Origin: Candidatus Jordarchaeum sp. LHC_1308
GTDB lineage: Archaea; Asgardarchaeota; Jordiarchaeia; Jordiarchaeales; Freyrarchaeaceae
Length of the DNA stretch: 64,000 bases
Reading direction: 5' to 3'
NCBI GenBank assembly: GCA_019057675.1
Contig: JAHLWX010000002.1
Location: 5,239 to 69,238, forward strand
A program made the translations under genes and the position numbers. The notes under the pieces were generated by a model, which ran no database searches, was not told the DNA's origin, and saw nothing but the letters and a program-made list of their open reading frames with translations. The stretch's first letter is position 1. Every line of letters begins with the position of its first letter. Shown piece by piece: positions 17,727 to 49,982 of the stretch.

Positions 17727-18098
17727 TTAGGGAGTTTCATTTACGTATTTATTGATTTCATTTACGTATTTATTGATGTACTCTGTTAGCTTCCAGCAGT
17801 GGTTTGGCGATATTGGTTGTCCTGCGCCGCAACGAGAAATTTGCGTGCATGTAAAGCAAGGGCATCCTCCCAATGTATCCCATCTTACTTCGACTTTCTC
17901 TCTCGTATTAGCGAAAAGCCTATAGGTCCATCTACCCTTATACAGTTCTTTCATTCTCCGCACAACTCCTTTTTTCTCAAGTTTCATAGCTATTCTCGAA
18001 CCTTCTCTGCTATTTACCCCCAATTTCCTCCATAAATCACTCTGAAGGAGTCCTCTTTCGCCTGCCTCCAATATGATTTGATAGGCTCTTTCTTCCAT
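17727..18098 (-). CDS. Small winged-helix DNA-binding protein with C-terminal Cys cluster
   Basis: 123 aa; N-terminal wHTH (LLQSDLWRKLGVNSREGSRIAMKLEKKGVV), then CPCFTC...C...HC cysteines; the C-terminus contains a 7-aa tandem duplication. Confidence 0.45.
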   Translation of the reverse strand: MEERAYQIILEAGERGLLQSDLWRKLGVNSREGSRIAMKLEKKGVVRRMKELYKGRWTYRLFANTREKVEVRWDTLGGCPCFTCTQISRCGAGQPISPNHCWKLTEYINKYVNEINKYVNETP

Positions 18099-18099
18099 C

Positions 18100-19660
18100 T
18101 GGGACCCCTCGGGTCAACATGGACTCGTTCCCCTAAAAAACTTTTAGGGTTTTAAGCACAAACCTACAGTTCTTCATTCTCGTATAACCTCATCGAATTA
18201 TCGCTCTATGTACGTTTTATCCAATTGACTAAAGGCGGTCTCCAAGCATCATATGGCTTTAGAACGTAGCCAGCATTAAGACGCCATTTACATTGGACAT
18301 TGGCACTTGTGGAGCCGGGTTGTTACGAGTCCATCCTTATTTATCTTCTCGAAGAAGCTTGTATCATGATTTTGCATGATTCTTCAGCCTTAATTCCATG
18401 TTTATTTTTTATCTCCTTTTTCGTTGTCTCTCCCTAACGAAGGCTCCTGCAGCGTAGAATATTCAATACACGCCGTCGGCACCAAAGCCGACTACAAAAA
18501 CGTCTTTTAGTCCTGCTATTTAGGGCTGTATTCAAAGCAAGCTCCTGATTTCTTACCCCTACCCCATCATCTTCACTTATAATTACCGTTGCTTCCCCAT
18601 CAATCACGATTAAAGCAGTCTTTTAAGTGACTCTTGGTTTAATGCGATGCTTTTAATGATTCCAGCCGCTAAGTAGCCGGCTTCTTCACTTCCCCCATCC
18701 ATGCGTGTAGTCAAGATGAACAAGTGTAGCCCTCTCCGTTAAGCCTCATTGGTCACCGTATTGACGCTCCCTATTGTTGGTAAAAGAAAGTTCTGAACCC
18801 TCCTTCTGAAAACTGGGTCGCTGGGCTTCAGCCTCTTCTCAACTATTCCCACTGTTCCCCCCCATGTTGAGCCTAGTCTTAATACTATTCACATTTCTCC
18901 CATTTCATATCTCTTCAAGAAATTTATAGCATCTGGAAAAGTTGTTGGATCCTGCGCTGTTGGTTCTGAAGCCACATTCTCTAACCTGTCACCTACAACG
19001 TCAGATACTGTCAGGCTTACAACGCGAGCAGGAAGCCAGTCCTACAGCAGTTCGCCTTTAACCTTTGAAAGATGCCTTCTCGTAACGCTAATCCCTATGT
19101 TCACCCTTCTCTTTAGAGGGCAGACGCTGCCCCCCATGGATATCTTAGATTTTCACATCTATCAGCTGGGAAGGGTAAGCATTGTTGAGCCACACCTGAA
19201 ATCAAACATATAACAAAGTTGTTTCCCGCCTTCTTAACTAGCCTAACAACTACTTCTTCCCCCTGATATATCCCCCCGTTTGGATTGGGGGCGCGTTGTC
19301 TCGAAAGGCTGAATACGCTTGGTGCTAAACATGCCAAAATCACCCCTTCTATGTGCAGACAGCACCATCCATTAATTCCCCTAAGGAGATTTCCTTTAAG
19401 GCTTCCACCAATGACGCCGCTCACTTCACGGCTCATACAACATATATTTTCTCAACGTTTCACAAAGGCATATGATCGCCACATACTGCTAAGCCTCAAT
19501 CATAAAGTTTCACAGCACTCTTAACGGCATTTCTCGACTCAGAAACCCTTATGGCAAGCTCCACTAAGTCTAGGAGCAAACCTTCGCTTATCTTTCACCC
19601 TCTCTAAGAGCTCTTCGCGGCCCTTCACGATTAGCCCCTTTTGCCATCTTATTTTTCCCT
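18100..19660. pseudogene. About 1.5 kb without an intact ORF; short in-frame protein-like segments interrupted by stops on the minus strand (decayed gene remnants)
   Basis: Only short overlapping ORFs; minus-strand translations give plausible peptide stretches (e.g. LVELAIRVSESRNAVKSAVKLYD, GGIYQGEEVVVRLVKKAGN) broken by stops and frame changes. Confidence 0.3.
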
Positions 19661-19661
19661 C

Positions 19662-21068
19662 TTAAAGTATTAACGAGATCTCCTCAAGCGCCCTCAGAAC
19701 TCGTCTCCCCCTCTGCGTCAACCTGAAGTACTTCCTTCTCCCCCTGTAGTATTCCTCAATGAGCCCTCTCTCCTGAAGTTCTCCTAAGTGTTGATAAACC
19801 GCTTGAATAGAGAGTTGCTTGCCGATAAACTTCCAAATCTCATAACCATATGACTCACCGATCTCTAAGAACCTCAAGATTTCGAACTTTGTCTTGAAGC
19901 CCCCTCTAGACTTTACCCCCCTCCTTCCTCCATCCGCCAATGCATCTATAACATAAGGGTCTTTCAAACCACTCGCTGTGATAAGGCAGACCGCGACTTC
20001 TGAAGGGTCAACGAGTCCCTCCTCCCTCATTTTTCTGAGGCAGGCAACTGATGCGGCGCTTGCCGGCTCAGAAAATACTCCCTCAGCTTTAGCTAAGAGC
20101 TTCTCAGCTTCTATTATTTCCCTATCAGTAACTGTGACGACAACCCCGCCACTTTCCTCAACGGCCTGAGCTGCCAGCCGGCCGTAAGCTGGCATCAGAG
20201 AAACGAGGGGGGACGCCGCCGTTGCGGTTTTCTCAACTCTTCTAACCCTGACCTTTCCTCCTTCACTGATTAAAGTGGCGCACCCATCTGGCTGAACCAG
20301 AACCATTCGAGGGGGGTGATCCGTCACGCCGAGGGCCAAACACTCCTTGATTCCCTTCCAGATAGAGTAGGCCGTATTCCCTGTCCCTGTAGGGACGATC
20401 ACTAGGTCAACATTCCTGCAATCCTCTAAAACTTCATGAGAAATGGTCTTCTGAGCTTCAACGGATAAAGGGTTGAGCTCCGGTGTGGCTTGGTAATATC
20501 CGTCAGCAATCCTCTCCGCCTCAGCTATAGCATCATCTATAACGTTTCCATTTCTTACTATGAGACCCCCATAAATGTACATCTGAGCCAGTTTACTCGC
20601 GTTAACGTTCCTCGGAATTATGATCATACACTCGATTTTTGCCCTAGCACAATAAGCAGCAGCTGAGGCGCCAAAGTTCCCATATGAAGCACAAATCAAC
20701 TTCTTTGCACCGGAATCAAGGGCATTAGAGACAATTAGGGAAGCAGCCCTATCCCTGTAGGAGTTTGTAGGGTTAGCTGTTTCATCTTTAAGTAAAACCC
20801 TTCCTCCCCCCATAGTCTCAGCAAGCTCCTTCGCCTCCCTAAGCGGGGTACCCCCCTCCCCCATGCTTATAATATTCTCATCGCTAATCGGAGGAAAAAT
20901 GGGGCGATACTTCCACATGCCCCGCCTGTTACTGTAAGGCGATTTAATCATCCAGTATTCATAAACATAATCAAGTATCCCCCCACACCTGTCACATCTT
21001 GCTACGGGCGGAAACGGATTCTTCTCTCTTCCGCACGACGTGCACCATAGAACGACGCTCAAGCTCAT
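19662..21068 (-). CDS. thrC: Threonine synthase with C-terminal PadR-like winged-helix extension
   Basis: 468 aa; N-terminal Zn ribbon and PLP-dependent fold (NPTNSYRDR ... lysine region); last ~75 aa (KFEILRFLEIGESYGYEIWKFI...YFRLTQRGRRVL) match the PadR HTH pattern. Confidence 0.85.
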   Translation of the reverse strand: MSLSVVLWCTSCGREKNPFPPVARCDRCGGILDYVYEYWMIKSPYSNRRGMWKYRPIFPPISDENIISMGEGGTPLREAKELAETMGGGRVLLKDETANPTNSYRDRAASLIVSNALDSGAKKLICASYGNFGASAAAYCARAKIECMIIIPRNVNASKLAQMYIYGGLIVRNGNVIDDAIAEAERIADGYYQATPELNPLSVEAQKTISHEVLEDCRNVDLVIVPTGTGNTAYSIWKGIKECLALGVTDHPPRMVLVQPDGCATLISEGGKVRVRRVEKTATAASPLVSLMPAYGRLAAQAVEESGGVVVTVTDREIIEAEKLLAKAEGVFSEPASAASVACLRKMREEGLVDPSEVAVCLITASGLKDPYVIDALADGGRRGVKSRGGFKTKFEILRFLEIGESYGYEIWKFIGKQLSIQAVYQHLGELQERGLIEEYYRGRRKYFRLTQRGRRVLRALEEISLIL

Positions 21069-21139
21069 CCTCCCTTACACACAACTTTATTAGGGTTCGA
21101 ATTTAACATAAAAGTTGCTTCAGCGCCGGGTGATCACAC

Positions 21140-34852: not shown

Positions 34853-35210
34853 GGGTGGTGGTGTAGGCGGGCGGCTAGGGGTCGCCTGATGGGGAAGCAT
34901 TGCTTCCCTTGACCGCAAACCCTCTTATGGCGGGCCGAAAGCCGGCGTGAGGCGTTCGTCAACCGTCACATCCCCTTCACGTTAAGGCGATGAAAACTCG
35001 TCCCAGAGGGCTAGCGGCGTCCGTCCGTCCTCCGTAGGGAGGACATGTTCGGTCTCTACTAGGGGAAACTGGCCAGGCCCGGGAGAGCTTGTCACGGCCC
35101 CGATGGAGCAACCTAACCCTAGACGCGTGGCGCTTCTGGGGAAGCGGGTTTGAGACCAAATGTGAAGGGTGTGGCGGGAGAGGTCGTCGATCGCCGGGAC
35201 CACCACCCGC
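34853..35210 (+). ncRNA. ffs: Signal recognition particle 7S RNA (probable)
   Basis: ~358-nt GC-rich (~62%) non-coding island; 5' GGGUGGUGG pairs with 3' CCACCACCC; contains helix-8-like CCAGGCCCGGGAGAGC and GGAGCAAC motifs; followed by a T5 terminator; no RNase P P4 consensus. Confidence 0.5.
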
Positions 35211-49689: not shown

Positions 49690-49777
49690 TGGCGGCCCCG
49701 AGGGGATTCGAACCCCCGACACCCGGCTTAGGAGGCCGGTACCCTCTCAGAACACATCCTGGCTGGGTTACGGGGCC
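49690..49777 (-). tRNA. tRNA-Arg (anticodon CCU) with putative ~11-nt non-canonical intron in the D-loop
   Basis: Minus-strand reading: acceptor GGCCCCG/CGGGGCC, anticodon arm CCGGC-CUCCUAA-GCCGG, T-arm GGGGG-UUCGAAU-CCCCU, encoded CCA; D-stem ACCC/GGGU encloses 20 nt (AGCCAGGAU + extra GUGUUCUGAGA). Confidence 0.7.
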
Positions 49778-49885: not shown

Positions 49886-49982
49886 GCGGGCGTAGTCCAG
49901 CCTGGTCTAAGACGTCGGCCTGCCACGCCGAGGACCCGGGTTAGGGCATTGTCCCCTCGAACGAATCCCGGCGCCCGCACCA
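49886..49982 (+). tRNA. tRNA-Gly (anticodon GCC) with putative ~19-nt non-canonical intron in the T-loop
   Basis: Acceptor GCGGGCG/CGCCCGC, A73, encoded CCA; anticodon arm UCGGC-CUGCCAC-GCCGA; 4-nt variable loop; T-stem CCGGG/CCCGG encloses 26 nt = UU + AGGGCAUUGUCCCCUCGAA + CGAAU (UUCGAAU when the insert is removed). Confidence 0.7.

Follow-up and report, generated by a model that had tools for sequence, protein, structure and literature searches.

Introduction

Reuse of the fold of a pyridoxal 5′-phosphate (PLP) enzyme as the effector module of a winged helix-turn-helix (wHTH) regulator is known from the MocR group, which includes GabR and PdxR. PdxR, a PLP-sensing MocR regulator, controls pdxST, pdxK, and pdxU in Bacteria, and MocR regulators have been reported to be absent from Archaea (PMC5320631). 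Proteins in which a threonine synthase (ThrC)-like domain is joined to a wHTH are already catalogued, in precomputed Pfam annotations and in NCBIfam as NF004170 (PRK05638), a profile of 442 positions that covers both domains, and they are uniformly named threonine synthase. We analysed a gene of this architecture in a 64-kb stretch of Candidatus Jordarchaeum sp. LHC_1308 (64,000 nucleotides, hereafter the window). An earlier note on this DNA had described the gene product as a complete PLP-dependent threonine synthase with an N-terminal zinc ribbon and a C-terminal PadR-like helix-turn-helix, an arrangement thought not to be standard for ThrC. Our comparison with its relatives suggests that the protein is probably a one-component transcription regulator whose ligand module is a pseudo-enzyme derived from threonine synthase.

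Results

Domain organization and catalytic residues

The open reading frame (ORF) at positions 19662–21068 of the minus strand comprises 468 codons with zero internal stops, and both domains are thus encoded as one polypeptide (Table 1). Given that the database twin of the protein (P0001) has 466 amino acids (aa) and that the sequence GGGAGG directly abuts the ATG, the true start is probably a TTG two codons downstream. The ThrC-like domain was matched by Pfam PALP (PF00291) with E = 2.7e-66. An AlphaFold2 (AF2) model built on 65 homologues had a mean predicted local distance difference test score (pLDDT) of 89.2 and showed a well-folded ThrC-like core, a disordered linker, and a confident arrangement of three helices, a wing, and a further helix (helices 390–403, 408–414, and 421–433, wing strands 437–450, and helix 452–467). 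The linker of about 20 aa is of low complexity, includes the segment GGRRGVKSRGG, and differs in length from clade to clade. When the model was compared with the Protein Data Bank (PDB) by Foldseek, the top matches were exclusively threonine synthases, with target TM scores of 0.81 to 0.85, and no ThrC–wHTH fusion was found among the solved structures. Sequence identity to solved ThrC proteins was 34–38%.

Residues were mapped with HMMER alignments to four solved bacterial ThrC proteins (2ZSJ, 1UIM, 2D1F, and 6CGQ). The Schiff-base lysine of fold-type-II PLP enzymes is also the catalytic base; in Thermus thermophilus ThrC it is Lys61. The residue of the window protein that aligns with this lysine of the S-F-K-D-R motif is Arg105. 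The five closest homologues likewise have Arg at this position, and it is therefore not a sequencing error. Four further residues of T. thermophilus ThrC, which we assume to hold the phosphate of O-phosphohomoserine (OPHS), are also replaced: T88 by F132, N154 by P196, S155 by E197, and R160 by S202, with a family consensus of M/L, P/A, E, and a variable residue, respectively. The cofactor-site residues N131 (O3′), G228-x-G230 (glycine-rich phosphate loop), and T364 vary little or not at all within the family, and no new invariant lysine was present in the PALP domain in the alignment of 65 homologues. The protein also scored below the cutoffs of the ThrC models, with 157 versus 167.1 for TIGR00260 and 224.2 versus 303 for PRK08197. 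As far as such comparisons can tell, the protein is very likely not a functional threonine synthase.

Loss of the lysine and presence of the wHTH

We aligned 269 sequences, drawn from 120 word-index matches and 150 representatives from an exhaustive search. The Schiff-base position was occupied by a residue other than Lys in 183 wHTH-bearing proteins (R in 126, L in 18, I in 15, V in 6, T in 5, M in 4, F in 3, and others in the remainder), and replacements across clades also included S, N, A, and Y. The variety of these replacements indicates that no chemistry is conserved at the position, which is a signature of a pseudo-enzyme. Lysine was initially assigned to 13 wHTH-bearing sequences; removal of four proteins with a LeuA_dimer domain left nine true fusions (9/192). 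Unfused relatives showed the opposite distribution, with 69 Lys versus 4 non-Lys sequences (n = 73), three of the latter four being fragments. Absence of the lysine thus coincides with the wHTH almost without exception. Fisher's exact test gave p ~1e-45, a value obtained with sequences that are phylogenetically non-independent. A rough neighbor-joining tree contained two fused clades and an unfused Lys clade; the fused 'R-type' clade holds the window protein, with a small Lys-retaining subclade nested within it, and the second fused clade was designated 'hydrophobic-type'. All four Cys residues of the zinc ribbon were kept in 149 of the 183 Lys-less fused relatives, and the unfused ThrC relatives also carry the ribbon (CCCC in 62/69).

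The four proteins that were set aside (P0198, P0214, P0252, and P0256, each of about 620 aa) had appeared to combine Lys with a wHTH as a result of alignment artefacts. They are Lys-bearing ThrC proteins with a C-terminal LeuA_dimer allosteric domain, an arrangement that suggests feedback-type control of a real enzyme.

Distribution of the fused architecture

The same architecture was found in about 190 cluster representatives. In a search of 5.8 billion proteins, nearly all of the best 120 matches carried PF00291 together with PF03551, and the source names among these matches included Jordarchaeales (88% identity), Freyarchaeota, Odinarchaeota, Bathyarchaeia, and Geothermarchaeales. A wider survey, consisting of an exhaustive search of representatives clustered at 50% identity and a scan of GTDB genomes, added Thor-, Hermod-, Heimdall-, and Baldrarchaeia, Nitrososphaerota/Nitrosopumilales, Desulfurococcales, and Thermococcus chitonophagus (WP_068578498.1); in total, at least eight archaeal lineages have the fused form. 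Complete genomes with the fusion include CP084167 of Ca. Heimdallarchaeum endolithica and CP015193 of T. chitonophagus, and the gene is also carried by a 2.1-Mb contig of Bathyarchaeia (JBNIDP010000001). The 65 homologues were colinear across the domain junction, with K394 and L398 invariant. Residues 8–462 of the window protein aligned with positions 3–442 of NF004170/PRK05638 (374.7 bits versus a cutoff of 421), and the 87-aa tail alone matched positions 371–442 of PRK05638 with E = 3e-21. Judged by these alignments, the window protein is a divergent (Asgard) branch with the NF004170 architecture, and there is next to no doubt that the fusion is real and conserved.

These results bear on much of the earlier note. 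The single 468-aa frame, the PadR-like tail, and the ribbon with its four cysteines (C9-x2-C12 and C25-x2-C28) were all borne out, by the ORF scan and colinear homologues, by the domain and structure matches described below, and by the residues themselves. The enzyme was not found to be complete, given Arg105, the replaced phosphate-site residues, and the missed ThrC cutoffs. Nor is the arrangement foreign to the family: orthologues share the extension rather than ending before the PadR segment, and the concern that a stop or frameshift had been missed is answered by their colinearity through the junction.

The PadR-type tail and candidate DNA targets

The Pfam PadR family (PF03551) matched aa 397–459 with 36.1 bits for the whole protein and 38.4 bits for the tail alone, both above the gathering cutoff of 27. 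The best PDB sequence matches of the tail were the PadR regulators 9QBC and 9QBD (E = 1.7e-7 for 9QBC), and the archaeal PadR-like AspA structures 4RS8 and 5K1Y matched at E values of about 0.004 to 0.006. The core of the predicted recognition helix, (A/S)(V/I)YQHLxEL, was invariant in every clade examined.

A perfect palindrome, (G)CCTATATATAGG(C), was found 5′ of the regulator gene in four Thorarchaeota loci, where it lies 12–24 bp from the start codon and 8–9 bp past a ATATATAA box, and two Nitrososphaerota loci showed the same arrangement with one mismatch. The form of the palindrome upstream of these Thorarchaeota and Nitrososphaerota orthologues is GCCTATATATAGGC (12–14 bp), and it is kept although the encoded proteins are only about 33–36% identical to the window protein. 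In random 170-bp windows, a sequence with at most one mismatch to the palindrome was encountered in about 0.2% of trials. The interval from TATA box to start codon is where a palindromic archaeal repressor site is classically found. The CCTATATATAGG element may be an operator, for which it is a candidate, or a symmetric TATA element. Three Hermod-like loci contained CTTATATATAAG-like sites in the promoter of the transporter gene described in the next section.

The palindrome was not recognised at the window locus: the best match upstream of the window gene had five mismatches, a background level. The 71-bp region between this gene and the divergent GINS gene contains an inverted repeat, CAACTTT-N22-AAAGTTG (21082–21117), and a palindrome, GTGATCAC, which may represent the two divergent promoters.

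Neighbouring genes in relatives

Adjacent ORFs were clustered across 34 fused loci. The dominant neighbour was a membrane protein of about 200 aa with similarity to the S-component of energy-coupling factor (ECF) transporters (PF07155/PF12822), the gene for which lies within 0–150 bp of the regulator gene in 24 of the 34 loci. It is co-directional in Bathyarchaeia, in a Heimdallarchaeia locus (L042), and in a Desulfurococcales locus (L047), divergent in four Thorarchaeota loci, and convergent in three Hermod-like loci (L022, L023, and L025) and an Odinarchaeota locus (L008). A duplicated ABC ATPase (EcfAA′-like) follows in L042 and L047, which therefore encode a complete dedicated ECF importer. 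The S-component gene also adjoins the gene for a Lys-retaining fused protein (P0119). When loci were viewed from the S-component, one Bathyarchaeia-like locus showed the regulator gene, then that for the S-component, and then a gene for an AIR-synthase-related (AIRS) protein.

A profile of 17 of these S-components had a single match among solved proteins, namely 4HZU chain S (E = 7.6e-27); no other solved S-component matched it, even at E values of up to 10. The matched protein is HmpT/PdxU2 of Lactobacillus brevis, the bound substrate of which was identified as pyridoxamine by mass spectrometry (PMC4860826). Both PdxU and PdxU2 belong to PF07155/COG4720, and few vitamin B6 transporters are known (PMC9997740). 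Four of six pocket residues of HmpT/PdxU2 are kept in the archaeal S-components: E41 (as D/E), Y120, N140, and Q143.

The AIRS protein of Bathyarchaeia could be a so far unrecognised kinase that acts on a vitamin or a precursor. In four Bathyarchaeia loci, a canonical ThrC of about 420 aa, with a zinc ribbon, the motif PTGSFKDR, and no wHTH, is encoded divergently from the fused gene and scores above the cutoffs of TIGR00260 (367.2) and PRK08197 (331.4). This adjacency may have been left behind by a tandem duplication, or it may reflect regulation of one gene with the other. An additional gene of the PALP family in a Freyarchaeota locus (L004:4687-6069, 460 aa) was dismissed as TrpB2-like on account of its GSHKPN motif and is unrelated to the ThrC family; it has no counterpart in the window.

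Table 1. Features of the ThrC–wHTH gene, of its surroundings, and of related loci. Positions refer to the window unless preceded by a locus identifier.
Feature	Residues	Position	Strand	Basis or remark
Whole ORF		19662..21068	-	468 aa + stop, or 466 aa from TTG at 21062
N-terminal zinc ribbon	5-36	20961..21056	-	C9, C12, C25, C28
ThrC-like fold-type-II PLP domain, predicted catalytically dead	67-364	19977..20870	-	Pfam PALP
Arg105 codon AGG	105	20754..20756	-	At PLP Schiff-base Lys position; SFKDR -> SYRDR
Flexible linker	371-389	19902..19958	-	pLDDT <50 in AF2 model
PadR-type wHTH + terminal helix	390-467	19668..19901	-	Pfam PF03551, PDB matches, AF2
Predicted recognition helix IQAVYQHLGELQE	421-433	19770..19808	-	Alignment, AF2
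Divergent intergenic region with GINS gene; presumed promoter, candidate operator region		21069..21139	.	71 bp
Decayed MOFRL/DUF4147 glycerate-kinase-like remnant		18262..19579	-	tblastn pieces, three frames
CCTATATATAGG after ATATATAA		L027:5978-5989, L028:5978-5989, L030:5960-5971, L031:5957-5968, L032:5955-5966, L035:5819-5830		Thorarchaeota, Nitrososphaerota
AIR-synthase-related protein (AIRS + AIRS_C; HypE/ThiL/SelD-like)		L006:10013-11020, L007:10157-11047, L092:4563-5570, six more loci		Right after ECF S-component, Bathyarchaeia
AIR-synthase-related protein		L035:3942-5402		Next to regulator, Nitrosopumilales genome
Canonical ThrC divergent from fused gene		L012:155-1432, L015:144-1406, L016:3891-5150, L017:4061-5317	-	Four Bathyarchaeia loci

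Neighbourhood in the window

The gene is divergent from GINS-MCM in the window, in loci L001–L003 (88% identity), and in the Freyarchaeota-type loci L004 and L009. A MOFRL/DUF4147 glycerate-kinase-like gene follows the regulator gene in the closest relatives of the window, and in the 88%-identical relative an intact MOFRL gene of 461 aa lies 12 bp downstream. The window itself holds a remnant of this gene, with about 43–47% aa identity over three frames and no ORF of more than 107 aa. The presence of this decayed gene explains the ORF-poor 1.5 kb; it could reflect genuine decay or a local assembly error. No RNA gene reached the gathering score in an Rfam scan of this stretch (18100–19660). The leuA gene is also found near the regulator gene in Jordarchaeia loci. 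Between leuA and the decayed MOFRL gene, an ORF of 123 aa (17727–18098, minus strand) encodes a protein whose N-terminal half is wHTH-like and whose C-terminus, GGCPCFTCTQISRCG, is rich in Cys; its counterpart in relatives has 116 aa and only a faint match to DUF7646. No second ThrC or other PALP paralogue is present in the 64-kb window.

Elsewhere in the window, ARAGORN identified a tRNA-Leu(GAG) at 49690–49777 (minus strand), and Rfam a tRNA of 94 nt about 100 bp away at 49886–49979 (plus strand), which was missed by ARAGORN and possibly contains an intron. An archaeal signal recognition particle RNA is located at 34855–35206 (plus strand).

Discussion

The protein is likely a ligand-responsive transcription factor. 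We tentatively propose a B6 vitamer as its leading candidate ligand, because the cofactor pocket is kept, covalent attachment is lost, and a PdxU2-like importer adjoins the gene in relatives. According to this model, the ThrC-like domain would dimerise as ThrC enzymes do, and the dimer would present its two wHTH domains, on flexible linkers, to a palindromic operator. The old active site would bind a B6 vitamer (PLP or pyridoxamine 5′-phosphate, PMP), or a PLP–amino acid adduct, reversibly and non-covalently, and binding would drive the closure of the small on the large domain that is typical of ThrC, with a consequent change in DNA affinity or operator occupancy. The regulator is predicted to act on its own promoter and, in most lineages, also on the gene for the vitamin-type ECF importer next to it. 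The family could then be an archaeal counterpart of PdxR, that is, a new class of B6-sensing transcription factor in which a Lys-less ThrC fold binds PLP or PMP reversibly and controls a PdxU2-like ECF importer; we regard this extended proposal as a possibility with somewhat less than an even chance. Of the two roles that the earlier note had offered for an enzyme joined to a transcription factor domain, metabolite sensing is thus the better reading, and direct autoregulation of thrC by an active enzyme is disfavoured by the loss of the lysine and of the substrate phosphate site.

Several observations weigh against a B6-sensing regulator of this kind. The importer gene is not adjacent in the window's own lineage, no homologue of the ECF S-component was found in the 64-kb window, and at a Lokiarchaeota locus with an S-component homologue no such regulator was nearby. 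Two of the six pocket residues of HmpT/PdxU2 differ in the archaeal S-components, H84 being an invariant K and Q87 an invariant E, and S136 is also replaced, by E; because of these three changes, the archaeal proteins may carry a different B6 vitamer or some related heterocycle. The specificity of HmpT/PdxU2 has itself been disputed historically between hydroxymethylpyrimidine (HMP) and B6. Other neighbours point elsewhere: the ThiL/HypE-like AIRS gene in nine loci, although below all cutoffs, hints at a thiamine-related ligand, the divergent thrC in four Bathyarchaeia loci at a threonine-related one, and an APC-type amino acid permease is encoded divergently in a Nitrososphaerota locus (L032). 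The palindrome is TATA-like and so may be a promoter element alone; neither the window gene nor its Jordarchaeia, Freyarchaeota, and Bathyarchaeia orthologues have it upstream, and its frequency over the whole window shows no enrichment (three matches with at most two mismatches versus 1.9 expected). The argument from the substrate site, finally, depends on the role that we presume for T88, N154, S155, and R160.

The same type of sensor could respond instead to an amino acid or intermediate such as threonine, serine, or homoserine, bound directly or as a PLP aldimine, and govern an amino acid regulon. The ThrC ancestry of the domain, the canonical thrC genes and the permease just mentioned, and the leuA and glycerate-kinase-like genes near Jordarchaeia loci are all consistent with such a ligand, and in the absence of the lysine a resident PLP could hold a stable external aldimine that does not turn over. 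We nevertheless consider this ligand unlikely, if far from negligible, since the dominant, phylum-spanning neighbour is a vitamin-type ECF S-component rather than an amino acid pathway gene, the recognition residues for the phosphorylated substrate of ThrC have been lost, and the thrC adjacency is confined to one Bathyarchaeia subgroup, where duplication in tandem could account for it. Still less probable is a wHTH that does not bind DNA, with the protein acting as a PLP/B6 carrier or partner of the ECF transporter and the wHTH mediating protein contact or dimerisation. Domains of this type are sometimes reused in protein contacts, no operator was found at the window, Jordarchaeia, Freyarchaeota, or Bathyarchaeia loci, and linkage to the gene for a membrane transporter is tight. 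Against this interpretation, the match of the tail to PadR regulators extends over the entire wHTH and takes in both wing and recognition helix, the YQHLxEL core does not vary even among very deeply diverged proteins, and a perfect 12- to 14-bp palindrome occupies the position expected for a repressor site in Thorarchaeota and Nitrososphaerota promoters.

A bifunctional protein, which would be active as a threonine synthase and would also bind DNA to autoregulate threonine biosynthesis, has in our estimation a very small chance of being correct. It would agree with the overall ThrC fold and the degree of identity to solved ThrC proteins, with the name given to the protein in public databases, with the minority fused subclade that retains Lys (9/192), and with the regulatory link to threonine that the divergent thrC genes may represent. 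Its difficulties lie in the replacement of the Schiff-base and general-base Lys by Arg105 in the window protein and by L, I, V, M, F, T, S, N, A, or Y elsewhere, in the altered OPHS phosphate site, in the failure to reach any ThrC equivalog cutoff, and in the coexistence of genuine ThrC paralogues. The merger of a separate small padR gene with thrC through a missed stop or frameshift had prior plausibility alone in its favour, together with the disordered, low-complexity nature of the linker. Comparison of orthologues refutes such an artefact of assembly or annotation and leaves it with practically no probability, in that about 190 representatives, drawn from independent assemblies and also from complete genomes, share the identical architecture, the junction aligns colinearly with its two invariant residues, and one curated hidden Markov model covers both parts.

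The reading of the protein as a lysine-less ThrC-fold sensor appears to be new, and targeted full-text literature searches returned no description of a ThrC–PadR family. Its immediate consequence is a correction of annotation. The family is named 'threonine synthase' in NCBI, JGI, and UniRef, and metabolic reconstructions of Asgard archaea, Bathyarchaeia, and Nitrososphaerota can show a wrongly filled threonine pathway as a result. The regulator and the transporter constitute a testable candidate pair in Archaea, which lack MocR-type regulators, at a time when prokaryotic B6 transporters are poorly known. The family would also provide a clean natural case of an enzyme turned sensor, with the catalytic Lys and substrate site gone, the cofactor pocket kept, and the change tightly coupled to the gain of a DNA-binding domain. 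If the proposed ligand is correct, a B6-sensing class conserved from Asgard archaea to Thermoproteota has been systematically mis-annotated as threonine synthase.

The likeness of the window protein to NF004170/PRK05638 is colinear over the full length, including the wHTH, but it scores under the family cutoff, and the name of that family implies an activity for which the window protein has neither the Schiff-base Lys nor the OPHS phosphate site. With canonical zinc-ribbon ThrC (TIGR00260/PRK08197; 1UIM, 2ZSJ, 2D1F, and 6CGQ) it shares the fold, a ribbon of the PRK08197 type, and the cofactor-holding Asn (O3′), Gly loop, and Thr (N1); it differs in having R, F, P, E, and S in place of K61, T88, N154, S155, and R160 and, unlike those enzymes, an extra linker and wHTH. 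The conserved neighbour gene of its relatives, which is not in the window, encodes a protein of the same Pfam family (PF07155) as HmpT/PdxU2 (4HZU chain S), and the pdxU gene of the PdxR regulon parallels this PdxU2-like neighbour. MocR proteins have an N-terminal GntR-type wHTH and a fold-type-I aminotransferase domain in which the PLP lysine is retained, whereas the window protein is archaeal and has a C-terminal PadR-type wHTH and a fold-type-II ThrC domain with no lysine. By this analogy, the family is a putative functional analogue of MocR/PdxR and not a homologue at the level of architecture. The wHTH with a single C-terminal helix resembles that of the short PadR-s2 type and of archaeal AspA. 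Canonical PadR regulators are stand-alone proteins of about 100–180 aa with an effector pocket in or near the wHTH dimer, whereas the effector domain of the window protein is an enzyme-derived module of 370 aa. In this respect, the effector module of this PadR-type wHTH protein is unprecedented.

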